Shown: one piece after another, positions 4,779-43,148 of the stretch
Numbering within the stretch: the first letter of the stretch is position 1
How the letters are laid out: every line of letters starts with the position of its first letter
Virus record (IMG/VR): IMGVR_UViG_2526164633_000017
Origin: a virus
Taxonomy: Duplodnaviria; Heunggongvirae; Uroviricota; Caudoviricetes
Strand: one strand, 5' to 3'
Length of the DNA stretch: 43,220 nucleotides
Position numbers and translations under genes: made by a program
Notes under the pieces: model-generated
What the model was told of the DNA's origin: nothing
Databases searched by the model: none
Seen by the model: only the letters and a program-made list of their open reading frames with translations

Positions 4779-5522
4779 TAATCACCTCAATACTGACACC
4801 ACCGGGAACAAACAACGGGTTGCTGATACCGTTCCTGCGGGCCAGCCGTTGCCAGTTCCGGCTGTTTCCTGTGTAACGGTACAGGGCCACCATTGCAGGC
4901 ATCGTCTCCGGCAGGCGGTGCGTTTCACTGCCCGCCAGTTGCAGCCCGCGTTTTTCCAGGTCGGCAACAACCAGCAGACGCAGTTGCGTAAGCTGAACGC
5001 TGTCTGTCGAAAAGCCCTGCTCAGATGCCGTCAGAATGACGGTATCCAGTGCAGCCCCCAGCATGGCGGCTGTTTTTCCGATATCGGACACACTTTCAAA
5101 TACCGGGGGCGTGGCTGTACCACTGTCTGAAAAGGATACCTGTGAAAAACCGCCGTCCGGGGTTATGGCAGTTAACTGTAACTGTCCCTGTGTGACGGTA
5201 GCGGATGTGCTGCTGGCCCCGATGGCTGTGCCGGTTGTGGTGGACGGGGCATCCAGTACAGGTGCACGGGCGGCATTATCCATCCGGCGACTGAAATCCA
5301 GTGCCGCAGTCAGTGCCTGGCTGGCAGCTTCTGCCCGGTATGTCTGCGCCGCTGCCAGCATGACGTAGTTCAGTGTGGCAATATTTTTTTCTGCAACCGG
5401 ACTGTTGTACGAGGTTGTGATTGTCCCCTGTCTGCCTGCGGTGGCAGCATGGCGACGTTCGAATCGCTGCGCCAGACGGTTCCATGTGGAAAATGCTGTC
5501 CGGGTATCGCATAACGATGAAA
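4771..5522 (-). pseudogene. DNA circulation protein (Mu N/gp43-like), C-terminal fragment, separated from its 5' part by IS66-family insertion
   Basis: ORF 4771..5361 is in-frame continuation up to the IS boundary at 5522; the N-terminal fragment lies at 7977..8720; combined length about 498 aa matches an intact gene. Confidence 0.75.
5515..5522. repeat. Target site duplication CGATGAAA (left copy) of IS66-family insertion
   Basis: Identical 8-mer CGATGAAA at 5515-5522 and 7977-7984 directly flanking the element ends. Confidence 0.85.
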
Positions 5523-5559
5523 GTAAGCGTGCAGCAAGAACCGTATTGACGGGGATGTG

Positions 5560-7098
5560 TTATTCAGTCGGCAGTGCTACGCGCCAGGGGAGCAGTTCGC
5601 CGACCCGGTTTATCGGCCAGTCGGCTATGACGTCAAGGACATAGCGGAGGTAGCTTTCTGGCTCCACTCCGTTCAGTTTGCACGTCCCGATCAGGCTGTA
5701 CAGCAGCGCTCCCCGCTCTCCTCCATGATCCGAACCGAAGAACAGGTAGTTTTTGCGGCCCAGACTGACCATCCGCAACGCATTTTCAGCGATGTTATTG
5801 TCCGCCTCAGCCCAGCCATCATCTGCATAGTACGTCAGCGCCGGCCACTGGTTCAGGGCGTATGCGAACGCTTTCGCCAGTTCTGAGTGTCGCGACAGGG
5901 TTTTCATCTTTTCACGCAGCCAGCTTTCCAGGGATTTCAGCAGCGGTTTCGTTTTCAACTGACGTTCGGCAAGGCGCTGCTCCGCCGTCATTCCCCTTAT
6001 CTCTGCCTCGATGGCGTACAGTTCGCCGATCCGTTTCAGCGCTTCCTCCGTCAGGGCTGACGGGGTGCGAACGTGCACATCGTGGATTTTACGGCGGGCG
6101 TGAGCCCAACAGGCGGCTTCCGTTATCCGGCCATCCCGGTACAGCTCGTTGAACCCGGCGTATGCATCCGCCTGCAGTACACCACTGAACCCCGCAAGAT
6201 GGGTCTGCGGATGGATGCCTTTTCTGTCCGGGCTGTAAGCGAACAACACCGCCGGCGCCAGCGTTGACCCGGCGTTACGGTCGTCACGAACGTAGGTCCA
6301 TAACCGCCCGGTCTTCGTTTTCTTATTGCCTGGCAACAGCACCGGGACAGGCGTGTCATCAGCATGGAGCTTACCGTCAGTCAGCACATAGTCCTGAAGC
6401 GCTTCTTCCAGCGGTGACAGTAGCCGGCAGCATGCATCCACCCAGCCCGACAGCAGTGAACGACTCAGCTCCACGCCCTGGCGGCCGTACATTTCAGACT
6501 GGCGGTACAGCGGGGTGTGCTCTGCATACTTTGAGATCAGCACGCGGGCCAGCAGCCCCGGTCCTGCGATACCCCGCTCGATGGGCCGTGAAGGCGCGGG
6601 GGCCTGCACGATGGCATCGCACTGAGTACAGGCATGCTTTTCACGTACAGTCCGGATAACCCGGAAGGCGCTGCGCATCAACTCCAGCTGTTCGGCGGCA
6701 TCCTCACCCAGATAGCTCAGTGAGCCTCCACATTCCGGGCAGCATGATGCTGCCGGCAGCAGCCGTTTTTCATCGCGGGGGAGTGATTCGGGGAACGGTT
6801 TGCGGGTGCGGGTTTGACGCAGCGGGCGCTGCACGGCCGGGTCGTCAACCCGACCGGTAAGGGTATCACTTTCTTTCTGAAGTGCCTTCAGGTCAGCTTC
6901 CATCTGTGCGATACGACGGGAGACTTTTTCGGAGCGGCTGCCGAAGTTCATCCGGCGCAGCTTATCCAGCTGTGCCTGCAGATGGTCTATTTCGCGTTCA
7001 CGCTCGTTCAGCTTTTCCAGCAGGGCACGGTTCAGCGCCTCCTGTTCGGCAAGGAGACGTTTCAGTGCATTGATATCGTCAGGAAGTGAGCTGCTCAT
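5560..7098 (-). CDS. tnpC: IS66-family transposase (large ORF)
   Basis: 512-aa ORF with N-terminal leucine-zipper-like region, CPECGG zinc-finger motif and DDE-type core; typical third ORF of IS66 elements. Confidence 0.8.
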
Positions 7099-7146
7099 AC
7101 CGGGTATATTACCAGGCTCATTCAGCGTCGACCAGGATAAAGAGGC

Positions 7147-7494
7147 TTACAACATAGTCAGGGACGTAAGCAGTCTTTTAGGCTGCCGCCAGTCGATACC
7201 TTCCAGCAGCATCGCCAGCTGTGCCGGTGTGAGGAACACTTTGCCATCCCGGGCTGACGGCCAGGCGAAGCGGCCGCGCTCCAGCCGTTTGGTCAGCAGA
7301 CACAGTCCATCGCCGGTAGACCAGAGGAGCTTTACCTGACTGCCATTACGCCCACGGAAGATAAAAACGTGACCTGACATCGGATCGTCTTTCAGCGTCG
7401 TCTGCACCTTTGCCGCCAGGCCGTTGAAGCCGTTTCTCATATCGGTGATGCCAGCGACCAGCCAGATCTTTGTCCCTGATGGTAATGGGATCAA
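7147..7494 (-). CDS. tnpB: IS66-family accessory protein (Orf2/TnpB)
   Basis: 115-aa ORF MIPLPSGTKIWLVAGITDMRNGFNGL..., overlaps upstream ORF stop; IS66 second ORF. Confidence 0.8.
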   Translation of the reverse strand: MIPLPSGTKIWLVAGITDMRNGFNGLAAKVQTTLKDDPMSGHVFIFRGRNGSQVKLLWSTGDGLCLLTKRLERGRFAWPSARDGKVFLTPAQLAMLLEGIDWRQPKRLLTSLTML

Positions 7495-7895
7495 CGTTTG
7501 AGCTCCCGTATCAGCAGGTTCAGGATATTTTCGCTGATGGCACCATTCAGACGGAGTGATCCGTGCCGGAACGTCACTTCACAGCTGATATTGAGTGATT
7601 CAGGTGTCGCAGCAGCTACAGGTTGTGACCGGGGGGAGGTTGTAGGGACAACATCTTCGGCATCAAGTGTTATCGGGAGCAGCTCAGGCACGTTGTTTTC
7701 TGTTGTTGAAGGAGGACGTAGTTTTCCTTCGCGCCAGTACTGGCGCCACTTGAACAGCAAATTATCGTTGATCCCATGCTCACGAGCGAGTTGCGCTACG
7801 GAGATCTCTGGTCGATGCGAGAGTTCAACCATTTTGATTTTGAACTCAACGGGATAATTAGGGCTTTTTTTACGCACTGCGGTTAATGATTTCAT
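7491..7895 (-). CDS. tnpA: IS66-family accessory protein (Orf1/TnpA, HTH)
   Basis: 134-aa ORF with HTH-like segment (SVAQLAREHGINDNLLFKWRQ); first ORF of IS66 arrangement. Confidence 0.8.
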   Translation of the reverse strand: MKSLTAVRKKSPNYPVEFKIKMVELSHRPEISVAQLAREHGINDNLLFKWRQYWREGKLRPPSTTENNVPELLPITLDAEDVVPTTSPRSQPVAAATPESLNISCEVTFRHGSLRLNGAISENILNLLIRELKR

Positions 7896-7976
7896 GGATA
7901 GCGTCCACCATATTTGGTGTCCACTATTCTCTCAGGAATTTCAGGATCTGCCAGACGGTGCTGAGACGACGCTTAC

Positions 7977-31133: not shown

Positions 31134-32072
31134 TTAATTACGCAGCAGCGTTGAAATATCAACGTCCAGGTCTAATTCACGGAAAGCCTGACGCAGATAA
31201 TCTTCGTTAACACGCTCACCTTTACCGTGAGCCGTCATGGCGGCAAGGCGAAGTGAATGATTCAGAATGCGAAGCGCACCTGGTTTCTGCGCAATCTGCT
31301 GTAATAACTCCAGTTCTTTTTCACCGTTAATCTGCCAGGCATCCGCAATAGCTTTTACATCGGCTTTTTTGGTTTTATTAATTGCAGTGCGCTTTGCAAT
31401 ACGGGAAAACAGACGGGCAAATTCAACCGTTCTGTTACCCCCCGTCATATTTGAATAAACCCGGTGATTTCCCATCAGCACAAGGCCAATACGGGTTGAT
31501 TCCTGTAACAGGCGGAGTTCTTCCAGAACCTCGGCACCAAGATGATCAGCTTCGTCGATGATAACCAGCCCCTGTGTACCTTCAAGGCGACGTCGCAGGG
31601 CGCGGGAGAGCGGCCCTTTACGGCGTGGTGCGTCATTCATTCCCAGCTCAAACGCCAGTTCAGTAAGACATTCCAGAACGCTGGCACAGGATGGCGTAAT
31701 GGTGATCATCCAGACATTGTTATTGGTGCGGCGATATTCACGGGCCGCTTCGGTTTTACCCACACCAGGATTGCCACATACAACAGCAATACTTTCAGTC
31801 AGGCTGGCAAAACGCATACTTGTCCAGATTTGTTTTACCGTCTGCGTTTCCACAAAGCGGGGCGGCTCAGGTAGTTCTGCAACTGCATGATATTTTTCCA
31901 GCCAGCGTTGCAGAATTTGTGAAACACGCTCGTTATCCCCGTTGTACTTATCATTGATAAAACTACTGATAGTTCCGGTAGAAAGCCCGCTCTCAAGAGC
32001 AATTTGTTTAAAGGTGGTTTCTTCATTTTCTACAAGCGTGCGCAGTTCTGCGCGAATATCGGAAATATTCAT
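31134..32072 (-). CDS. B: DNA transposition ATPase (MuB-like, AAA+)
   Basis: 312-aa ORF with Walker A GNPGVGKTE and Walker B VIIDEADHL; N-terminal HTH; immediately after transposase gene. Confidence 0.9.
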   Translation of the reverse strand: MNISDIRAELRTLVENEETTFKQIALESGLSTGTISSFINDKYNGDNERVSQILQRWLEKYHAVAELPEPPRFVETQTVKQIWTSMRFASLTESIAVVCGNPGVGKTEAAREYRRTNNNVWMITITPSCASVLECLTELAFELGMNDAPRRKGPLSRALRRRLEGTQGLVIIDEADHLGAEVLEELRLLQESTRIGLVLMGNHRVYSNMTGGNRTVEFARLFSRIAKRTAINKTKKADVKAIADAWQINGEKELELLQQIAQKPGALRILNHSLRLAAMTAHGKGERVNEDYLRQAFRELDLDVDISTLLRN

Positions 32073-32110: not shown

Positions 32111-34204
32111 TTAAATGGCTTTTTTACGTCTGTTCTGTTCCAGAATATCCAGCGAATGATTCAGATATTCATCACGCTCAGTTTCGTATTCATCATCATG
32201 CTCTTCCTCACACCTCAACGGCTGAACGGTCACCACATTACCAACAGGGCGATAAACATTATCCAGCCAGGGTTCTATCGTTTTTTGTTCAATAACCTGA
32301 ATACCTTCATCCTCAGCATCACGTATTTTTTCCTCAGCACGCTTGCGCATTCCTTTAATACGTTGCTGTTGTTTGTGATATTCAGCCGTAACAGGAAAGG
32401 CTGCGCGTTTATTGCCGTTCCATATCGCCTCACAGATAAAGCTACCGTCCTTACGGCGTACCGTAATTCGCTCGGCATCGTGAATGTCATAGCTGATAAG
32501 TACCTTGCGACCATGTTCATCACGTAGCTCTGGCGCGTAGTAAATATTGTTCAGCCACTGGATTTCGCAGCGTCTTACCGGACGCTCCACCATCGGGCGG
32601 AACATGTCACGCAGCTCAATATCACTCAGCCACTCAATTTCAGTGTCTTCTTCCGCTAAGCGTTTTTTTCTGAACTCTGCCGGGCTGTAATGTTTTCCGT
32701 TTGGTTTCATCGGCAATTCAGAATGTGGGCGGTTGTTGTACCACTCCACCCCCTCACGGATAGCCTCAATCAGTTCTGACCAAGACGGCAGCTCGCGCAT
32801 TGCGGCTTTCTGACGGGCGCTCAGTGGCTTGTCCTGTTGCAGGGCATTAAACGCTGAACGCAGATCACGATTAAGTACTCGCAACGATTCCCGGTCAGCC
32901 CCCTTGCCGAAATAGGTGCGATACCTCCTTGCTATACGCATCGGTAACGTCCGGTTCAGGCGCTCAATAATGCCGCGTCCCTGCGGATTTCCCGCAATAC
33001 CAGTGGGGTGGTTAATCCCCAGGCGGGGCAGAATCCCGACGATCTCTTTATCCAGCATATCTGCCGTTTCACCGGAACCATTATCCGAGTAATACAGGAA
33101 TGGTTTTCCGTGATTGCGAATGCCGTGTTGTATCGCCCCGGCAACAGCGAACACGTTCTCCGCAAGATCAAGACTCCAGCCAACCACAAACCGGGTTCCA
33201 CCGTCGATCACAAACGTAACTTCCGGTGAAAATGGACGCCCGTGAACCGGATGCGCACATTTCAGCTTCATACCGTGACCGTCACCAATCCAGACATAAT
33301 TCACCGGCATAGCTGTCCAGTCGCGGCGGGTGAATCCTTCAAGCTGACGGTATTCACTGCCGGTAACGCGCCCTTTTTGTTTCACCACTTCCGGCAGTTT
33401 TTTCATGGCATACCGGACAACATCATAGGAAGGCATCACCTCCAGCATGTATGGTTCGTCCGCATGGCGACGCTGCCAATCAGCGACAAAATCCTCGTAT
33501 GCTTCTGACATAGGCCTGCCGTTAGCCTGACGATACTGCGCCAGAAATTCAGGCAGCCAGCTAATTTCTTCCGGTTTTATTTCGTCGCGCTTTCCTGGTG
33601 CCAGTAACAGCAATCGTTCTGCGGCATTCTGTGCTTTGTTAAACGCAGCTATCCAACGTTTGAGCGTAATTGCGCTCAGAGTTCGCTCTTTCCCTTTACG
33701 GGCATTAGCAGTAATGACCAAAGATTCCAGGCGTTCTTCCAGGTTACCCTGCGCTAACCGCGACACAATAAAACGTATAGCGCTGGCACAACTGAATCCC
33801 GGCTCCTGGCTAATTCGTAGAACTTCACAGACAAGAGCAATACGCGCTTCTGCAACTTTACGTTGATTTTCCGTAAGCGCATTCAGACGCTCTTCTACCA
33901 ATTGTGGCGAACCGCGATATGCCTCAACAGGCTGTACAACATTTTGTTTGCGTTCACGCTTTACAGGAGGCTGGGTAGTTATCTCCTGCGGGGCGGTTGC
34001 CATCAGTTGAGCTACATGGCGCTCACGTAACGCCCGTTGTGTAACCGGAGGGAGGCAGTCGATGCTGTATTCAATGGTTTTTGAACCCGCACGTTTGCGC
34101 CTGAAATGCTCAGATGAGGCCAGTTTCCTTATGGAATACCGCACCCCTTGCGCAGTTCCCGGCATACCCGGTAGCCCTACAAGCTCATTAACTGACACAA
34201 ACAT
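32111..34204 (-). CDS. A: DDE transposase (MuA family)
   Basis: 697-aa ORF; N-terminal winged-helix-like DNA-binding region, DDE-type core (IGDGHG...), C-terminus ...DEYETERDEYLNHSLDILEQNRRKKAI. Confidence 0.9.
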   Translation of the reverse strand: MFVSVNELVGLPGMPGTAQGVRYSIRKLASSEHFRRKRAGSKTIEYSIDCLPPVTQRALRERHVAQLMATAPQEITTQPPVKRERKQNVVQPVEAYRGSPQLVEERLNALTENQRKVAEARIALVCEVLRISQEPGFSCASAIRFIVSRLAQGNLEERLESLVITANARKGKERTLSAITLKRWIAAFNKAQNAAERLLLLAPGKRDEIKPEEISWLPEFLAQYRQANGRPMSEAYEDFVADWQRRHADEPYMLEVMPSYDVVRYAMKKLPEVVKQKGRVTGSEYRQLEGFTRRDWTAMPVNYVWIGDGHGMKLKCAHPVHGRPFSPEVTFVIDGGTRFVVGWSLDLAENVFAVAGAIQHGIRNHGKPFLYYSDNGSGETADMLDKEIVGILPRLGINHPTGIAGNPQGRGIIERLNRTLPMRIARRYRTYFGKGADRESLRVLNRDLRSAFNALQQDKPLSARQKAAMRELPSWSELIEAIREGVEWYNNRPHSELPMKPNGKHYSPAEFRKKRLAEEDTEIEWLSDIELRDMFRPMVERPVRRCEIQWLNNIYYAPELRDEHGRKVLISYDIHDAERITVRRKDGSFICEAIWNGNKRAAFPVTAEYHKQQQRIKGMRKRAEEKIRDAEDEGIQVIEQKTIEPWLDNVYRPVGNVVTVQPLRCEEEHDDEYETERDEYLNHSLDILEQNRRKKAI

Positions 34205-34623: not shown

Positions 34624-35169
34624 ATGGATAAGCTGAAAGGAAAGTCACTTTCTTTGCCGGAAGTGACAAAAGAAAGTATCCCGGAGCGTTTGAGAGAATT
34701 AATTGGAAAAAGAAGTGTAAGGGCTGCTGCGAAAGATTGGGGGTTGTCTTTTTCTACTTTAAACAATTACCTGACGCGAGGTACTGAACCTTCACTCAGT
34801 GTGGCTCGGCAGATAGCTGCAATTGAAGGGGTTACTATCGAATGGATATGTGGATCACATGATGATTCATATGAGAATCACCCAATTTCAACTAACACGC
34901 ATAATGAGAATACAAAACTCATTATGAACATCATTAACGCCTTGGATGCAAAGGATATTGAGCGACTATCTAAGACTCTTGCCCTCAATGGTGCTAAGTA
35001 TCTGACTCAAATGTTGGAACCCGAAAATCAAGGCTTACTGCGTCTTGAAGGACGAAAACGTGTCGCCGCGCTGCTATTAGATGATTTACCTGATGAGCGT
35101 ATCAGAGAGATTTTGGAAGAAATTGAGAGCAGCAAACTCTCAAGTAGTGTAAAATCGAGAGCGGGCTAG
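34624..35169 (+). CDS. c: Prophage repressor (Mu c-like)
   Basis: 181-aa ORF divergent from ner-A-B operon; HTH-like segment (VRAAAKDWGLSFSTLNNYLTRG); RBS AGGAAAG upstream. Confidence 0.75.
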   Translation: MDKLKGKSLSLPEVTKESIPERLRELIGKRSVRAAAKDWGLSFSTLNNYLTRGTEPSLSVARQIAAIEGVTIEWICGSHDDSYENHPISTNTHNENTKLIMNIINALDAKDIERLSKTLALNGAKYLTQMLEPENQGLLRLEGRKRVAALLLDDLPDERIREILEEIESSKLSSSVKSRAG

Positions 35170-35389: not shown

Positions 35390-35421
35390 AATTTACCTCT
35401 CTATACGACTATGAGGAGAAA

Positions 35422-35727: not shown

Positions 35728-37627
35728 TATGATGGCTGCCGTTTCGGTTGCGCTGCAGCCTCTGGTCAGGGTTGTACCAATGACGGCAGTTGAATGGGCT
35801 GATCAAAATTATTATCTGCCTAAAGAATCTTCATATGGTGAGGGAGAATGGAAAACGCTGCCATTCCAGATCGCCATTATGAACTGTATGGGTAACGACC
35901 AGGTTCGCACGGTTAACCTGATTAAATCTGCCCGTGTTGGCTATACAAAGATGTTGCTGGGGGTGGTCGGGTATTTTATTGAGCATAAATCCCGAAACAG
36001 TCTGCTTTTTCAGCCCACGGATTCTGCCGCTGAAGATTTTATGAAGTCTCACGTGGAGGCGACGATTCGGAACGTGCCATGCCTGAAAGACCTTTCCCCA
36101 TGGCTGGGTCGTAAACATCGTGACAATACTCTCACGCTGAAACGCTTTTCATCGGGCGTCGGTTTCTGGTGCCTGGGCGGCGCTGCCGCCAAAAACTACC
36201 GTGAAAAATCCGTGGACGTGGTCTGCTATGACGAACTTTCCTCGTTCGAGCCGGATGTCGAAAAAGAGGGCTCGCCAACCCTGCTGGGGGATAAGCGTAT
36301 TGAGGGGTCGGTGTGGCCAAAATCCATTCGCGGCTCGACGCCTAAAATCAAAGGCACCTGCCAGATCGAAAAAGCCGCTAACGAGTCGGCGCATTTTATG
36401 CGTTTTTATGTGCCCTGCCCGCACTGTGGGGAGGAGCAGTATCTGAAATTTGGCGATGAGTCCACGCCTTTTGGGCTTAAATGGGAGAAGGACAGCCCTG
36501 AAAGTGTTTTCTACCTCTGTGAACATCATGGCTGCGTGATCCATCAGTCTGAGCTTGACCAGAGCAACGGGCGGTGGATCTGTGAAAACACGGGCATGTG
36601 GACCCGTGACGGTCTGACGTTTTTCAGCGCCCGGGGTGATGAAATTCCGCCGCCGCGCTCCATCATGTTCCATATCTGGACGGCGTACAGTCCGTTCACC
36701 ACCTGGGTACAGATTGTCTATGACTGGCTGGATGCACTGAAAGATCCCAACGGCCTGAAAACCTTTGTGAACACCACGCTGGGCGAGACCTGGGAAGAGG
36801 CCGTGGGCGAAAAACTCGATCACCAGGTACTGATGGATAAGGTGGTGCGTTACACGGCGGCGGTGCCTGCCCGGGTGGTTTATCTGACGGCGGGCATTGA
36901 CTCGCAGCGAAACCGTTTTGAGATGTATGTCTGGGGATGGGCTCCGGGAGAGGAAGCCTTTCTGGTGGATAAAATCATCATTATGGGGCGTCCTGATGAG
37001 GAAGAGACGCTGTTACGTGTGGATGCGGCGATCAACAAAAAATACCGCCATGCGGATGGCACCGAAATGACTATTTCCCGTGTCTGCTGGGACACCGGGG
37101 GGATCGATGGTGAAATTGTTTATCAGAGATCAAAAAAACACGGTGTTTTCCGGGTGCTGCCGGTAAAAGGCGCATCTGTCTATGGCAAGCCGGTGATCAC
37201 CATGCCAAAAACCCGCAATCAGCGGGGCGTGTATCTGTGTGAAGTGGGAACGGATACCGCAAAAGAAATTCTCTATGCCCGTATGAAAGCCGATCCCACG
37301 CCTGCGGATGAAGCCACGTCGTATGCCATCCGTTTTCCTGATGATCCGGAGATTTTTTCGCAGACAGAGGCGCAGCAACTGGTGGCGGAAGAGCTGGTGG
37401 AGAAGTGGGAAAAAGGAAAGATGCGTCTGCTGTGGGATAACAAAAAGCGGCGTAACGAAGCGCTGGACTGCCTGGTGTATGCCTACGCGGCATTACGTGT
37501 GTCCGTGCAACGCTGGCAGCTTGATCTGGCTGTACTGGCAAAATCCCGGGAAGAAGAGACGACCCGGCCAACCCTGAAAGAACTGGCAGCGAAGCTGTCC
37601 GGAGGAGTGAATGGTTACAGTCGCTGA
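35699..37627 (+). CDS. A: Lambdoid terminase large subunit (gpA-like)
   Basis: ORF track 35642..37627; ATG at 35699 gives MNISEQQLNNMMAAVS...TAVEWADQNYYLPKES..., 642 aa, lambda A-like throughout. Confidence 0.9.
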   Translation: MNISEQQLNNMMAAVSVALQPLVRVVPMTAVEWADQNYYLPKESSYGEGEWKTLPFQIAIMNCMGNDQVRTVNLIKSARVGYTKMLLGVVGYFIEHKSRNSLLFQPTDSAAEDFMKSHVEATIRNVPCLKDLSPWLGRKHRDNTLTLKRFSSGVGFWCLGGAAAKNYREKSVDVVCYDELSSFEPDVEKEGSPTLLGDKRIEGSVWPKSIRGSTPKIKGTCQIEKAANESAHFMRFYVPCPHCGEEQYLKFGDESTPFGLKWEKDSPESVFYLCEHHGCVIHQSELDQSNGRWICENTGMWTRDGLTFFSARGDEIPPPRSIMFHIWTAYSPFTTWVQIVYDWLDALKDPNGLKTFVNTTLGETWEEAVGEKLDHQVLMDKVVRYTAAVPARVVYLTAGIDSQRNRFEMYVWGWAPGEEAFLVDKIIIMGRPDEEETLLRVDAAINKKYRHADGTEMTISRVCWDTGGIDGEIVYQRSKKHGVFRVLPVKGASVYGKPVITMPKTRNQRGVYLCEVGTDTAKEILYARMKADPTPADEATSYAIRFPDDPEIFSQTEAQQLVAEELVEKWEKGKMRLLWDNKKRRNEALDCLVYAYAALRVSVQRWQLDLAVLAKSREEETTRPTLKELAAKLSGGVNGYSR

Positions 37628-37817
37628 ACTGCAGGCGCTGCGTCAGGCGCGCCTTGATTTATTAACCGGTAAACGGGTGGTGTCTGTCCAGAAAGATGGT
37701 CGCAGAATTGAATATACGGCGGCTTCTCTGGATGAGCTTAACCGGGCGATCAATGATGCGGAGTCGGTACTGGGGACAACCCGACGTCGCCGTCGTCCGC
37801 TGGGAGTGAGGTTATGA
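37611..37817 (+). CDS. W: Head-tail joining protein (gpW-like)
   Basis: 68-aa ORF ...LLTGKRVVSVQKDGRRIEYTAASL... Confidence 0.85.
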   Translation: MVTVAELQALRQARLDLLTGKRVVSVQKDGRRIEYTAASLDELNRAINDAESVLGTTRRRRRPLGVRL

Positions 37818-39406
37818 AACGAACGCCTGTCCTGATTGATGTGAACGGCGTTCCGCTTCGTGAGAGTCTCAGCTACAACGGGGGCGGCGCAGGATTTGGC
37901 GGGCAAATGGCGGAGTGGTTGCCACCGGCGCAGAGTGTCGATGCGGCCCTGCTGCCCGCGTTGCGTCTGGGGAATGCCCGGGCAGATGATCTGGTGCGCA
38001 ATAACGGAATAGCGGCTAATGCGGTGGCCCTGCATAAGGATCACATTGTCGGGCATATGTTTCTGATCAGCTACCGTCCGAACTGGCGCTGGCTGGGGAT
38101 GCGGGAGACCGCAGCAAAAAGCTTTGTCGATGAGGTGGAGGCGGCCTGGTCGGAATACGCAGAAGGGATGTCTGGCGAGATCGACGTGGAAGGAAAACGC
38201 ACATTTACGGAGTTTATCCGTGAAGGTGTTGGCGTTCATGCGTTTAACGGCGAAATCTTTGTGCAGCCGGTCTGGGATACGGAAACCACGCAGTTATTCC
38301 GTACGCGTTTTAAAGCCGTGAGTCCGAAACGGGTGGACACGCCAGGACACGGTATGGGGAACCGTTTTCTGCGGGCCGGGGTGGAGGTCGATCGATATGG
38401 CCGTGCCGTTGCGTACCATATCTGTGAGGATGATTTTCCTCGCTCCGGGAGTGGACGATGGGAACGGATCCCGCGTGAACTTCCCACCGGGCGTCCGGCC
38501 ATGCTGCATATTTTCGAGCCGGTGGAGGACGGGCAGACCCGTGGGGCTAATCAGTTTTACAGCGTCATGGAACGGCTGAAGATGCTGGATTCCCTGCAGG
38601 CAACACAGCTTCAGTCGGCCATTGTGAAAGCCATGTATGCAGCGACGATTGAAAGTGAACTTGATACCGAAAAGGCCTTTGAATATATCGCCGGCGCGCC
38701 ACAGGAGCAGAAGGATAATCCGCTTATTAATATTCTGGAGAAGTTCTCCAGCTGGTATGACACGAATAACGTGACACTGGGCGGTGTCAAAATTCCGCAC
38801 CTTTTCCCTGGTGATGATCTGAAACTACAGACTGCGCAGGATTCAGACAATGGATTTTCTGCGCTTGAACAGGCGCTGCTGCGGTATATCGCCGCCGGTC
38901 TTGGCGTTTCCTACGAACAGTTGTCCCGTGATTACTCGAAGGTCAGTTATTCAAGTGCCAGGGCCTCTGCCAATGAGTCGTGGCGCTATTTTATGGGGCG
39001 GCGAAAATTTATTGCGGCCCGGCTGGCCACGCAGATGTTTTCCTGCTGGCTGGAAGAGGCACTTCTTCGGGGGATTATCCGTCCGCCACGGGCGCGTTTT
39101 GATTTTTATCAGGCGCGATCAGCCTGGTCACGGGCAGAGTGGATTGGTGCCGGAAGAATGGCCATTGACGGGCTCAAGGAGGTTCAGGAATCGGTGATGC
39201 GCATTGAGGCCGGACTGAGCACGTATGAGAAAGAGCTGGCGCTGATGGGCGAGGATTATCAGGACATTTTCCGCCAGCAGGTCAGGGAATCTGCAGAGCG
39301 GCAAAAAGCCGGACTCTCACGTCCGGTGTGGATAGCGCAGGCGTATCAGCAGCAGATAGCGGAGAGTCGCAGGCCGGAAGAGGAGACAACACCACGTGAG
39401 ACGTAA
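37814..39406 (+). CDS. B: Lambdoid portal protein (gpB-like)
   Basis: 530-aa ORF following W. Confidence 0.9.
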   Translation: MKRTPVLIDVNGVPLRESLSYNGGGAGFGGQMAEWLPPAQSVDAALLPALRLGNARADDLVRNNGIAANAVALHKDHIVGHMFLISYRPNWRWLGMRETAAKSFVDEVEAAWSEYAEGMSGEIDVEGKRTFTEFIREGVGVHAFNGEIFVQPVWDTETTQLFRTRFKAVSPKRVDTPGHGMGNRFLRAGVEVDRYGRAVAYHICEDDFPRSGSGRWERIPRELPTGRPAMLHIFEPVEDGQTRGANQFYSVMERLKMLDSLQATQLQSAIVKAMYAATIESELDTEKAFEYIAGAPQEQKDNPLINILEKFSSWYDTNNVTLGGVKIPHLFPGDDLKLQTAQDSDNGFSALEQALLRYIAAGLGVSYEQLSRDYSKVSYSSARASANESWRYFMGRRKFIAARLATQMFSCWLEEALLRGIIRPPRARFDFYQARSAWSRAEWIGAGRMAIDGLKEVQESVMRIEAGLSTYEKELALMGEDYQDIFRQQVRESAERQKAGLSRPVWIAQAYQQQIAESRRPEEETTPRET

Positions 39407-40901
39407 TCTTTCACACATTATTGCCGCAGCATTCAATGAACCGCTGCTTCTGGAGCCCGCCTATGCGCGGGTTTTCTTTTCGCGCTCGGGCGCGAGATGG
39501 GGGCAGCAAGTCTTTCGGTACCACAACAGCAGGTACAGTTTGATGCTCCCGGAATGCTGGCTGAAACGGACGAGTACATGGCCGGAGGTAAACGACCGGC
39601 CCGTGTTTACAGGGTGGTGAACGGTATTGCTGTACTGCCGGTGACCGGCACGCTGGTGCACCGGCTGGGGGGTATGCGGCCATTTTCCGGAATGACAGGC
39701 TATGACGGTATTGTCGCCTGTCTTCAGCAGGCAATGGCGGATAGCCAGGTGCGGGGCGTACTGCTGGACATTGACAGTCCGGGCGGGCAGGCCGCCGGCG
39801 CGTTTGACTGCGCTGACATGATTTACCGCCTCCGTCAGCAGAAGCCGGTCTGGGCACTGTGCAATGACACGGCCTGTTCTGCAGCCATGCTGCTGGCGTC
39901 GGCCTGCTCCCGACGGCTGGTTACCCAGACATCCCGTATCGGCTCCATTGGCGTGATGATGAGCCATGTCAGCTATGCCGGTCATCTGGCGCAGGCCGGT
40001 GTGGATATCACGCTGATTTACTCAGGGACGCACAAGGTGGATGGCAATCAGTTTGAAGCCTTACCGGCAGAGGTTCGCCAGGACATGCAGCAGCGCATTG
40101 ATGCGGCGCGCCGGGTGTTTGCCGAAAAAGTGGCGATGTTTACCGGTCTGTCTGTTGATGCCGTCACGGGAACAGAGGCCGCCGTTTTTGAAGGTCAGTC
40201 CGGCATTGATGCCGGGCTGGCGGATGAATTAGTCAATGCGTCGGATGCCATCAGTGTGATGGCCACGGCGCTGAACAGTAATGTCAGAGGAGGCACTATG
40301 CCGCAATTAACTGCAACGGAAGCCGCAGCGCAGGAGAACCAGCGAGTGATGGGGATCCTGACATGCCAGGAAGCGAAAGGACGTGAACAGCTTGCCACGA
40401 TGCTGGCAGGACAACAGGGCATGAGCGTTGAACAGGCCCGGGCGATTCTGGCCGCGGCGGCACCGCAGCAGCCGGTGGCATCCGCGCAGAGTGAAGCCGA
40501 TCGCATTATGGCGTGTGAAGAAGCGAACGGTCGTGAACAACTGGCGGCAACGCTGGCGGCGATGCCGGAGATGACGGTGGAAAAAGCCCGCCCGATCCTG
40601 GCTGCTTCACCGCAGGCGGATGCCGGACCCTCACTCCGTGATCAGATCATGGCACTGGATGAGGAAAAAGGGGCGTGAGGCGCAGGCTGAACAGCTGGCT
40701 GCCTGCCCGGGAATGACTGTGGAGAGCGCCCGGGCTGTGCTGGCTGCGGGATCAGGTAAGGCAGAACCGGTCTCTGCATCCACAACCGCCCTGTTTGAAC
40801 GCATCATGGCGAACCATTCACCGGCTGCGGTACAGGGTGGCGTGCCACAGACGTCAGCAGACGGTGATGCGGACGTGAAAATGCTCATGGCCATGCCATG
40901 A
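39396..40901 (+). pseudogene. C: Prohead protease/scaffold (gpC/Nu3-like) with at least two frameshifts and a triplicated C-terminal repeat
   Basis: N-terminus in frame 0 (39396..39620: MRRNLSHIIAAAFNEPLLLEPAYARVFF) shifts near 39476-39482 (T-run) to the frame of ORF 39497..40678; second shift at GAAAAAGGGG about 40660 to the frame of ORF 40620..40901. Confidence 0.7.
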
Positions 40902-40937
40902 AGTCAGTGCTGACCATCAACAGGAGGTTTTTACAAT

Positions 40938-41283
40938 ATGGTAACGAAAACATCACTGAACAGCGTGCGGAAGTACGTATTTTTGCCGGTAATGATCCGG
41001 CTCATACCGCCACAGGCAGCAGCGGGATTTCCTCGGCAACACCGGCACTGACGCCCCTGATGCTGGATGAAGCCAGCGGGAAACTGGTGGTCTGGGACGG
41101 ACAGAAAGCCGGTAGTGCAGTTGGCATACTGGTACTGCCGCTTGAAGGCACAGAGACGGTACTGACCTATTACAAGTCGGGGACCTTGCGACGGAGGCAA
41201 TCCGCTGGCCTGAAAGTGTGGATGAACACAAAAAGGCAAATGCCTTTGCCGGCAGTGCCCTGAGTCACGCGGCGCTGCCGTAA
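40938..41283 (+). pseudogene. D: Head decoration protein (gpD-like) with two frameshifts
   Basis: ATG at 40938 with RBS CAGGAGG; frame shifts at A-run near 40946 into frame of ORF 40898..41263 (…GNDPAHTATG…), then near 41190 into the frame that ends ...AFAGSALSHAALP at 41283. Confidence 0.65.
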
Positions 41284-41340
41284 CACGTTATCAGGCCACC
41301 GCGGTGGCCTGACTGATTTCTGAATGAAAGGAACTGATTT

Positions 41341-42367
41341 ATGGGATTGTTTACGACCCGCCAGTTACTCGGTTATACCGAACAAAAAGTGAAATTTCGT
41401 GCGCTGTTTCTGGAGCTGTTTTTCCGCCGTACGGTGAATTTCCATACCGAAGAGGTGATGCTGGACAAAATTACCGGAAAAACGCCGGTGGCGGCCTATG
41501 TCTCCCCGGTTGTTGAAGGAAAAGTGCTGCGTCATCGCGGTGGTGAAACCCGCGTGTTACGTCCGGGCTACGTCAAGCCGAAACACGAATTTAATTACCA
41601 GCAGGCGGTTGAGCGTCTTCCCGGTGAAGATCCGGCTCAACTGAACGACCCGGCCTACCGTCGTCTGCGTATCATCACCGATAACCTCAAACAGGAAGAG
41701 CATGCCATTGTCCAGGTGGAAGAAATGCAGGCGGTGAATGCCGTGCTGTATGGCAAATACACCATGGAAGGGGATCAGTTTGATACTGTCGAGGTGGATT
41801 TTGGACGCTCTGAAGGAAATAACATTGAGCAGGCCGACGGTAAAAATGGTCTGAGCAGGACCGTGATACGTTTGATCCGACGCATGATATTGACCTCTAC
41901 TGCGATCAGGCCAGCGGTCTTGTGAATATTGCCATTATGGACGGTACTGTCTGGCGTCTGCTGAATGGTTTTAAGCTGTTCCGCGAAAAACTGGATACCC
42001 GTCGCGGCTCAAATTCACAACTCGAAACGGCAGTGAAAGACCTGGGGGCGGTGGTGTCTTTCAAAGGGTATTACGGCGATCTGGCCATTGTGGTGGCGAA
42101 AACGTCTTATGTGGCAGAGGACGGTACCGAAAAACGTTATCTGCCGGAGGGCACGCTGGTCCTGGGAAATACGGCTGCAGATGGGATCCGTTGTTACGGT
42201 GCCATTCAGGATGCGCAGGCGTTGTCCGAAGGTGTGGTGGCTTCTTCCCGTTACCCGAACACTGGCTGACCGTGGGCGATCCGGCCCGTGAATTTACCAT
42301 GACGCAGTCCGCACCGCTGATGGTGCTGCCGGATCCGGATGAGTTTGTGGTGGTGCAGGTGAAATAA
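41341..42367 (+). pseudogene. E: Major capsid protein (gpE-like) with two frameshifts
   Basis: Three collinear frame segments: 41341..about 41838, about 41838..42262, 42263..42367 (…WLTVGDPAREFTMTQSAPLMVLPDPDEFVVVQVK); shifts at A5 run near 41838 and near 42260. Confidence 0.7.
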
Positions 42368-42802: not shown

Positions 42803-43148
42803 TTTTCAGAATGCCTTTGATGCTGCCCTTGCCGGGGTGGACAGCACGATTGTTGAAGTGATGGGGCTCTGTGCGCAGTTCACCTCGGGGGCACAGTGTG
42901 GCAGCGAAGTTCAGGGGGTTTTTGACGATCCGGAGTCGCTGGGGTTTGCCGGTAGCGGGGTCCGTATTGAAGGAAGCTGTCCGTCATTATTTGTGCGGAC
43001 GGATACGGTGCGTGCCGTGCGGCGTGGTGACACGCTGACCATTAATGGTGAGACATTCTGGGTGGACCGTGTTTCTCCGGATGACGGAGGGAGTTGTTAT
43101 CTCTGGCTCAACCGTGGGCAACCACCCGCAGTTAACCGGCGACGATAA
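42795..43148 (+). CDS. FII: Head-tail connector protein (gpFII-like)
   Basis: 117-aa ORF ending ...FWVDRVSPDDGGSCYLWLNRGQPPAVNRRR. Confidence 0.85.
   Translation: MRDFQNAFDAALAGVDSTIVEVMGLCAQFTSGAQCGSEVQGVFDDPESLGFAGSGVRIEGSCPSLFVRTDTVRAVRRGDTLTINGETFWVDRVSPDDGGSCYLWLNRGQPPAVNRRR

Follow-up and report, generated by a model that had tools for sequence, protein, structure and literature searches.

In phage lambda, procapsid assembly requires a scaffold in which Nu3 and C take part and which is removed by the protease, and interactions of Nu3 with itself, with C and with E have been reported (PMC3224144). For the corresponding gene pair of coliphage 21, GenBank record M81255 annotates gene 5 with a nested gene 6 and the ribosome-binding site (RBS) of the latter, and marks three repeat regions inside gene 6 as 'Tri1 box', 'Tri box' and 'Tri3 box', accompanied by the note 'function unknown'. 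A further phage 21 record, OL657228, names the gene 5 product 'capsid protease/scaffolding protein' and the gene 6 product 'scaffolding protein'.

The locus considered here lies in a viral stretch of 43,220 nucleotides (IMG/VR record IMGVR_UViG_2526164633_000017), which in its full length is referred to as the window. Its segment from 39396 to 40920 is 98.3% identical to phage 21 (M81255, OL657228) and 98.2–98.4% identical to several other coliphages, so that the feature under study is the gene 5/6 pair of phage 21, Tri boxes included, and is already known. The annotation of the triple repeat in the head operon of phage 21 is decades old, the gene is among the commonest in E. coli prophages, and the repeat as such has little discovery value. 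With a probability of roughly 0.85, we read the region as the scaffold domain of a phage 21-type gene pair, consisting of an old, triplicated and likely interaction-mediating module, with a frameshift that is most likely an error.

The gene 5/6 locus and its head operon

A head operon of the lambda type occupies the plus strand of the window between 35.6 and 43.2 kb (ORF map). Its gene order—terminase, W, portal, C, D, E—is also the one annotated in phage 21 and in an E. coli prophage with 99.7% identity. The relevant features are as follows.

About 35699 (ATG) to 37627, plus strand: large terminase gene (ORF map)
37611–37817, plus strand: W-like gene (ORF map)
37814–39406, plus strand: portal gene (ORF map)
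39396–40901, plus strand: C-like gene, equivalent to phage 21 gene 5 and of the lambda C type (98.3% nucleotide identity to M81255 and OL657228)
39830–40273, plus strand: peptidase S49 (SppA/ClpP-like) domain, aa 146–293 (Pfam PF01343, E = 2.4e-34)
40287–40293, plus strand: RBS GAGGAGG of the nested scaffold gene (read in the sequence; the RBS of gene 6 has the same place in M81255)
40298–40901, plus strand: gene 6 (Nu3 equivalent), nested in frame, 200-aa scaffold protein (annotation of M81255 and OL657228)
From 40938, plus strand: D-like gene (ORF map)
From 41341, plus strand: E-like gene (ORF map)

The product of the C-like gene is an S49 prohead protease fused to a scaffold domain and comprises 501 aa once repaired, i.e. 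with its reading frame restored by comparison with relatives; all amino acid numbers given for the units below refer to this repaired protein. It differs by a single residue from the product of the matching locus in E. coli FDAARGOS_1059 (WP_001253919.1) and by 12 of 501 residues from phage 21 gp5. As it stands in the window, the gene is broken by two single-base indels into the ORFs 39396–39620, 39497–40678 and 40620–40901. The S49 domain, which in a sequence search of the PDB matches the SppA structures 3rst and 4kwb, retains the serine aligned with Ser166 of lambda C (in TACSAAM). The C-terminal 200 aa are matched by the head protease/scaffold families PHROG 53, 8399 and 8940, several of them with three matched stretches.

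Thus, the window locus has the features that characterize the gp5/gp6 pair of phage 21, namely the S49 domain with its nucleophile serine, the position in the operon, the nested start with its RBS and the three Tri boxes. An uninterrupted reading frame is what it lacks (deletion at 39481, insertion at 40675), and the second of these changes also lies within gene 6. Gene 5/6 of the window is therefore a pseudogene or a sequence error, which leaves its membership by descent unaffected. A separate scaffold product starting from the nested ATG at 40298 is predicted. The lambdoid prophage as a whole is interrupted: a Mu-like prophage, itself carrying an inserted IS66-family element, ends at 35405 inside the region of the Nu1-like (small-terminase) gene.

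Three related units in the scaffold part

The scaffold part contains three consecutive copies of a module of about 36–40 aa with the consensus ILxCEEAKGREALAxxLAxxxxMSVEEAKAILAAAP, and the beginning of a fourth.

40340–40465, plus strand: unit 1 (U1), aa 316–357, QRVMGILTCQEAKGREQLATMLAGQQGMSVEQARAILAAAAP, containing the Tri1 box (window 40365–40468); from M81255, unit alignment and unit HMM
40499–40615, plus strand: unit 2 (U2), aa 369–407, DRIMACEEANGREQLAATLAAMPEMTVEKARPILAASPQ, containing the second Tri box (window 40505–40615); same sources
40640–40757, plus strand: unit 3 (U3), aa 416–454, DQIMALDEEKGAEAQAEQLAACPGMTVESARAVLAAGSG after repair, containing the Tri3 box (window 40646–40760); same sources
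40794–40841, plus strand: truncated start of a fourth unit, FERIMANHSP, FERIMANHSPAAVQGG; from direct repeats and alignment to ALDRLMQGAP of lambda

At the protein level, the units of about 40 aa are 53–62% identical to each other in pairwise comparison. Their local alignment scores of 80–101 compare with a mean of 26 (sd 5) for shuffled sequences (z = 10.6–15.1), the observed score being reached by none of 2000 shuffles, and the unit HMM finds three domains in the window protein. Following the truncated fourth start, a conserved C-terminal tail ends in DADVKMLMAMP; in the scaffold alignment A1, F166, M170 and P200 at the C-terminus do not vary. 

The Tri boxes of M81255 map onto the three units of the window. 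Their source paper is reportedly Smith & Feiss 1993, Gene 126:1-7. A literature search did not find the original Tri-box description, and what was known before is taken here from the GenBank annotation of M81255 together with this citation. Inside the repeats, OL657228 also marks two minus-strand matches to the 'CII binding site' pattern, which we treat as probable chance matches to a consensus.

A preliminary description of this stretch, which had been made from its letters alone, was right in placing three consecutive units at the 3' end of this gene, which the nested Nu3-like gene has in common with the C-like gene, and in noting that the reading frame must shift for the third unit to be reached: the 393-aa ORF 39497–40678 stops at the TGA 40676–40678, with the remainder being read in ORF 40620–40901. 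Its rendering of U3 as KGREAQAEQ had to be corrected, as it shifted the frame one base early; the intact unit reads ...EEKGAEAQAEQLAA..., with KGAEAQAEQ. Moreover, the C-like gene has two frameshifts, i.e. that at 39481 in addition to the one noted earlier at 40675, and the truncated fourth unit start is also an addition to the earlier picture.

Single-base indels in the C, D and E genes

The window was compared with phage 21 and with the E. coli prophage closest to it (strain FDAARGOS_1059), and relative to the latter it has six single-base indels.

39481, plus strand: missing G, first frameshift of the C-like gene (pairwise alignment with phage 21 and the E. coli prophage)
40675, plus strand: extra G (ggggcGtgagg, as against ggggctgagg in relatives), producing the premature TGA 40676–40678 (pairwise alignments)
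40947, plus strand: missing A (against the FDAARGOS_1059 prophage)
41186, plus strand: missing T (against the FDAARGOS_1059 prophage)
41842, plus strand: missing A (against the FDAARGOS_1059 prophage)
42258, plus strand: missing A (against the FDAARGOS_1059 prophage)

All six are confined to the 2.8 kb between 39481 and 42258, i.e. to the C, D and E genes. Over 6.8 kb, the FDAARGOS_1059 prophage differs from the window by 12 substitutions, nine of which cluster after 42824; the interval 39396–42290 combines six indels with about two substitutions. Against many genomes, window positions 40930–42290 give 99.7% identity (1361 versus 1365 nt), which fits four deletions and zero substitutions. The 32.5 kb of Mu-like prophage, on the other hand, are 99.94–99.98% identical to their FDAARGOS_1059 counterpart with zero gaps, and the terminase and portal genes have zero indels, though they too are multi-copy in E. 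coli. Gene 5 is present in three copies in the nearest relative. None of 1920 sites in complete E. coli genomes matched a 71-nt stretch around 40675 exactly (best match 98.6%, with one gap), and the D–E segment with its four deletions was matched exactly in no complete E. coli genome. Furthermore, exact matches were found in genome_contigs or viral_contigs neither for the frameshifted sequence nor for the junction between the Mu-like and lambdoid sequences.

Indels that outnumber substitutions, and do so only within a segment carried in several copies by E. coli genomes, look like an error of assembly or polishing, and most likely the shift at 40675 and the other indels are residual sequencing, assembly or polishing errors in a multi-copy prophage segment. 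Alternatively, the six indels could be real mutations, reflecting decay of the head genes after the insertion of the Mu-like prophage had inactivated the lambdoid prophage. The end of the Mu-like prophage inside the Nu1-like gene region would be in line with such a course of events, as would the IS66-family element, a sign that mobile elements are active in this genome; also, neither the extra G at 40675 nor the missing G at 39481 is a change in homopolymer length. However, neutral decay would not plausibly produce six indels alongside about two substitutions, the 32.5 kb of Mu-like DNA, the terminase gene and the portal gene are all free of indels, and the insertion at 40675 recurs at none of the 1920 comparable sites, just as the D–E segment recurs exactly in no complete genome. 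We thus consider real decay unlikely and retain sequence error as the preferred reading. For users of the record, calls of the C-, D- and E-like genes in the window will come out in pieces and are best regarded as probable sequence errors or pseudogenes.

Unit number in related phages and prophages

Three units are routine in the close relatives of the window locus. Twenty phage records—phage 21 and 19 others—cover the whole scaffold part, and all 20 have three units; in the same phage collection, Gifsy-1 also covers the scaffold part, at 55% identity. The unit HMM finds three units each in phage 21 gp5, in Gifsy-1 and in the window. Among 5426 complete E. coli genomes, the gene is present in 1884 (median two sites per genome, best identity 99.7%), or in 1866 if a coverage of at least 80% is demanded. 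By contrast, about 80 lambda-type phage records match with one unit only, and lambda C itself has exactly one (aa 358–400 of NP_040584, unit HMM), in agreement with the preliminary description. A wider family sample of 150 diverse S49 prohead protease representatives, clustered at 50% identity, contained 104 proteins with one unit, one with three, two with a second partial match and 43 with none, many of these 43 being fragments. One copy is thus the general state, whereas three are the mark of the phage 21/Gifsy clade, itself a very abundant group.

Lambda Nu3 has 201 aa and phage 21 gp6 has 200 aa, and their nested starts align (GGRMTKET in lambda, GGTMPQLT in the window); compared with lambda, the scaffold has therefore not become longer through the triplication, against the earlier expectation that it would change scaffold length. 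In place of U1, U2 and the linkers that go with them, lambda has about 56 aa rich in Ser, Thr, Ala and Gln in front of its single unit. The full C protein has 439 aa in lambda and 501 aa in the 21 type.

Copy-number variants within the 21-like proteins

Unit number also varies among 21-like proteins of E. coli. The census of these variants is based on a full-length protein search combined with the unit HMM; a 200-aa scaffold query had returned mostly fragments.

451/452 aa: two units, 24 clusters
482 aa: two units plus half of U2, 66 clusters
About 501 aa: three units, the form found in the window and in phage 21
551 aa: four units, 2 clusters
657 aa: five units, one protein with a large internal duplication, which may be an artefact

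For the 482-aa form, the exact P0279 sequence occurs in 3592 blocks of the assembly collection. P0031 is a more distant protein with four units.

For each of the 451-, 482- and 551-aa forms, the breakpoints of one example were read by DNA alignment. The 451-aa form has an exact 150-nt deletion between the U1 and U2 CGTGAACA strings, by which two units are fused in register. In the 482-aa form, the deletion lies inside U2 and comprises about 57 nt in all, with one flank reading CTGGCG as against CTGGCT at the corresponding flank of the reference. The 551-aa form has a 150-nt duplication at ATGAC(G/T)GTGGA, the junction bases being N in that record. All three of these genes have full-length neighbouring head genes, and the breakpoints of all three fall at short sequences common to the units.

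The repeats thus appear to promote rearrangement on an evolutionary scale, in line with the breakpoints at sequences shared between units, and to this extent the earlier suspicion that they could promote slippage was partly justified. It does not extend to the frameshift: the shift at 40675 has no visible link to the repeats and belongs to a set of six scattered single-base indels that only the window has. Moreover, unit number seems to be tolerated, at least in the intact-looking head modules of prophages, where the series of four lengths implies scaffolds of about 150, 181, 200 and 250 aa.

A possible role of the unit

Pfam has no family that covers the unit (matches to HHH and DUF7178 were sub-threshold and were rejected), and a sequence search of the PDB yielded only SppA, via the protease part, and no match for the unit. 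An AlphaFold2 model of the scaffold, based on a 19-sequence alignment and of low confidence (mean pLDDT 62.5, pTM 0.27), has three short helices per unit (xRIMA, REQLAxxLA and (S/T)VExARxILAA) and two further helices in the C-terminal tail, with low confidence in the linkers; a Foldseek search of this model against the PDB gave zero matches with E < 1. The linkers between the units are rich in Pro, Ala and Gln and are predicted to be flexible.

The unit is most likely a protein–protein interaction module. The gene pair would provide a protease joined to a scaffold part of about 200 aa, the latter also being translated alone from the internal ATG at 40298, and, by analogy with lambda, protease and scaffold would be built into the procapsid via the same contacts of their shared C-terminal part. 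In this part, a module of which lambda and most S49 prohead proteases have a single copy, and which was triplicated before phage 21 and Gifsy separated, may serve scaffold self-association and/or binding of the major capsid protein; its copy number would then determine valency and not serve as a ruler of length.

The units could also be passive spacers or a molecular ruler, which would determine the length of the scaffold and hence the size of the capsid. The nearly equal lengths of Nu3 with one unit and gp6 with three could indeed reflect a length constraint, and the inter-unit linkers are predicted to be disordered. However, no other part of the C-terminal region is as well conserved as the unit, which occurs in 104 of the 150 representatives with a strongly conserved motif (EAKGRE...M(S/T)VE.A..ILAA) and in this respect does not resemble a spacer, and a ruler is difficult to reconcile with prophage variants whose implied scaffold lengths spread from about 150 through 181 and 200 to 250 aa in otherwise intact head modules. 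A spacer or ruler is therefore improbable, and an interaction module remains the preferred reading. More tentatively, and as an idea that we would sooner doubt than adopt, the module may be an uncharacterised capsid-binding or scaffold-dimerising domain, with its copy number of 2, 2.5, 3 or 4, which recombination at short sequences common to the units would have generated, being not fixed but a naturally variable and tolerated 'valency dial' of the contact between scaffold and procapsid. A natural series of two to four units in a conserved module that has neither an assigned Pfam family nor a solved structure is a modest lead for future studies.

Age of the triplication and least likely alternatives

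At the DNA level, the in-frame identity between the units is 58–67%, compared with a background of 28 ± 5%. At third codon positions it falls to 35–41%, and the same codon is used at only 8–9 of the 18–21 residues that are identical between two units. Self-comparison gave its strongest diagonals at offsets of 150, 142 and 292, the longest strings common to the units measure about 12 nt, and Tandem Repeats Finder reported no array with a period of about 150 nt in the region; the high nucleotide identity and periodicity of a recent or collapsed tandem repeat are thus absent from the units. Judged by these comparisons of sequence, the repeat is real at the protein level and old at the DNA level. 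The units of Gifsy-1 point in the same direction: U1 and U2 share 26/36 and 29/36 residues with U1 and U2 of the window, respectively, as against 16–22 for non-corresponding pairs. As U1 and U2 of Gifsy-1 are closest to their namesakes in the window, the triplication is therefore older than the split between the phage 21 and Gifsy lineages.

The preliminary description had treated the triplication as a repeat expansion, with the implication that it is unusual, and had itself named a lack of nucleotide periodicity and a routine presence of three units in related phages as observations that would speak against it. Both are essentially what was found: three units are routine in related phages, in Gifsy-1 and in 1866 of 5426 E. 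coli genomes, and of the nucleotide periodicity only the weak diagonals at 150, 142 and 292 could be seen, which stay below detection by Tandem Repeats Finder. Hardly any credence is thus left for a recent tandem expansion or assembly artefact specific to the window sequence, a reading that three similar units in tandem with a frameshift inside the third might have suggested, given that nucleotide identity between units is just 58–67% with third codon positions near random, that shared strings reach about 12 nt at most without a detectable array, and that the same three units recur in phage 21 (sequenced twice independently) and 19 further phage records, as well as in Gifsy-1 and about 1870 complete E. 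coli genomes. Programmed frameshifting, by which recoding would give a shorter 2.5-unit scaffold along with a frameshifted full-length product and for which the A-rich and G-rich run GAAAAAGGGG upstream of the stop codon could be cited, is rejected, since the extra base is not conserved (it occurs in no relative examined, all of which read straight through), since a workable slippery site is absent and a +1 shift would be needed at GCG-TGA, where the P-site tRNA cannot re-pair, and since another five frameshifts nearby, in the essential genes C, D and E, point to damage or error rather than design.

Comparison with known systems

P22 gp8 and other phage scaffolding proteins have C-terminal helix-loop-helix domains that bind the coat protein. 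In the low-confidence model, the scaffold would likewise have small helical modules towards its C-terminus and be largely flexible, which resembles P22 gp8 by functional analogy only: no match of sequence or fold to the unit was detected, and the P22 scaffold is neither fused to a protease nor repeated.

Lambda C/Nu3 shares with the window locus the position in the head operon, the equivalent of Ser166, the position of the nested start, the unit motif and the C-terminal tail; in the protease part, i.e. the N-terminal 300 residues of lambda C, 181 of 288 residues are identical. It differs from the 21 type in having one unit instead of three. STM2605 of Gifsy-1, a Salmonella prohead protease of 498 aa and homologue of lambda gpC, has three units in the same order, with positional correspondence of U1 and U2, but is only 55% identical over the scaffold part and reads GRE in its third unit where the 21 type has GAE.

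The closest system is phage 21 itself (M81255; OL657228, PMC9119081). The window copy departs from it by the frame-breaking indels at 39481 and 40675 and by the interruption of its prophage by a Mu-like prophage; gene order, the nested start with its RBS and the three units at the same positions are the same in both.

Composite structure of the window

The larger part of the window is occupied by a Mu-like prophage, which is complete and itself carries an insertion relative to the reference Mu-like prophage:

1-35405, minus strand: complete Mu-like prophage, with head and tail genes among others
31134-32072: AAA ATPase of this prophage
32111-34204: transposase of this prophage
34624-35169: repressor-side HTH gene of this prophage
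~5522-7970: insertion of ~2.4 kb
5560-7098: IS66-family transposase within the insertion (PF03050, E = 9e-107)
7491-7895: HTH_Tnp_1 protein within the insertion

This IS66-family insertion splits the DNA circularisation gene of the Mu-like prophage. At one end of the window, positions 1-512 align to the reference locus (L004, 891-380) in inverted orientation, and in the reference prophage a recombinase gene adjoins the matching stretch. As judged from this alignment, the arrangement would fit an invertible tail-fibre segment in its flipped state, comparable to the G segment of Mu.

The end of the Mu-like prophage near 35405 falls within the small-terminase (Nu1-like) region of a 21-like prophage, and the lambdoid prophage is therefore interrupted. 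Both halves, i.e. the Mu-like and the 21-like one, are matched in E. coli FDAARGOS_1059, the strain with the nearest prophage, at separate loci and with 99.8-99.98% identity. The junction itself is absent from all 5426 complete E. coli genomes and likewise from the species-representative genomes. Further into the lambdoid part, 12 substitutions separate the sequence from the nearest E. coli prophage, and nine of them fall in the FI/FII-like genes at 42824-43127, a clustering which suggests a mosaic recombination boundary.

Disrupted head genes

In comparison to near-identical prophages, six single-base indels (at 39481, 40675, 40947, 41186, 41842 and 42258) disrupt the head genes of C, D and E type. 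The 32.5 kb of Mu-like DNA is free of such indels, as are the terminase and portal genes. The insertion at 40675 is absent from all 1920 comparable E. coli sites, and the D-E segment, which contains four of the deletions, is without an exact match in any complete E. coli genome. The six indels probably represent a local problem of sequence quality.

Copy number of the Tri-box units

E. coli prophages also contain in-frame variants of the Tri-box region, i.e. of the repeats in the scaffold part of the C-like protein, with 2, 2.5 and 4 units:

Prophage loci: L007 (3001-4356), L010 (3001-4449), L009 (3001-4656)
Related proteins: P0329, P0279, P0241, P0031, P0240

In the examples examined, the variant breakpoints lie at short sequences common to the units. 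With listings in 3592 collection blocks, the 482-aa form is extremely common; a single protein with 5 units may be an artefact. Iterating the unit HMM produced a marginal partial match (i-E 0.006-0.04) in the last part of the protease domain, and did so for the window, for phage 21 and for Gifsy-1:

~40110-40166: marginal unit-HMM match, aa 239-257 of the repaired (frame-corrected) protein, RRVFAEKVAMFTGLSVDAV

This match could be due to chance or be a remote echo of the LAxxxGMSVE motif of the unit.

Comparison with the lambda scaffold

The scaffold products of the window (40298-40901) and of lambda (nu3; 833-1438 of the lambda locus L005) are nearly equal in length, with 200 and 201 aa, respectively. 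Despite this near-equality they differ in unit number—the window product has three units, whereas lambda has one—and in the lambda scaffold a segment rich in Ser, Thr, Ala and Gln takes up the space.
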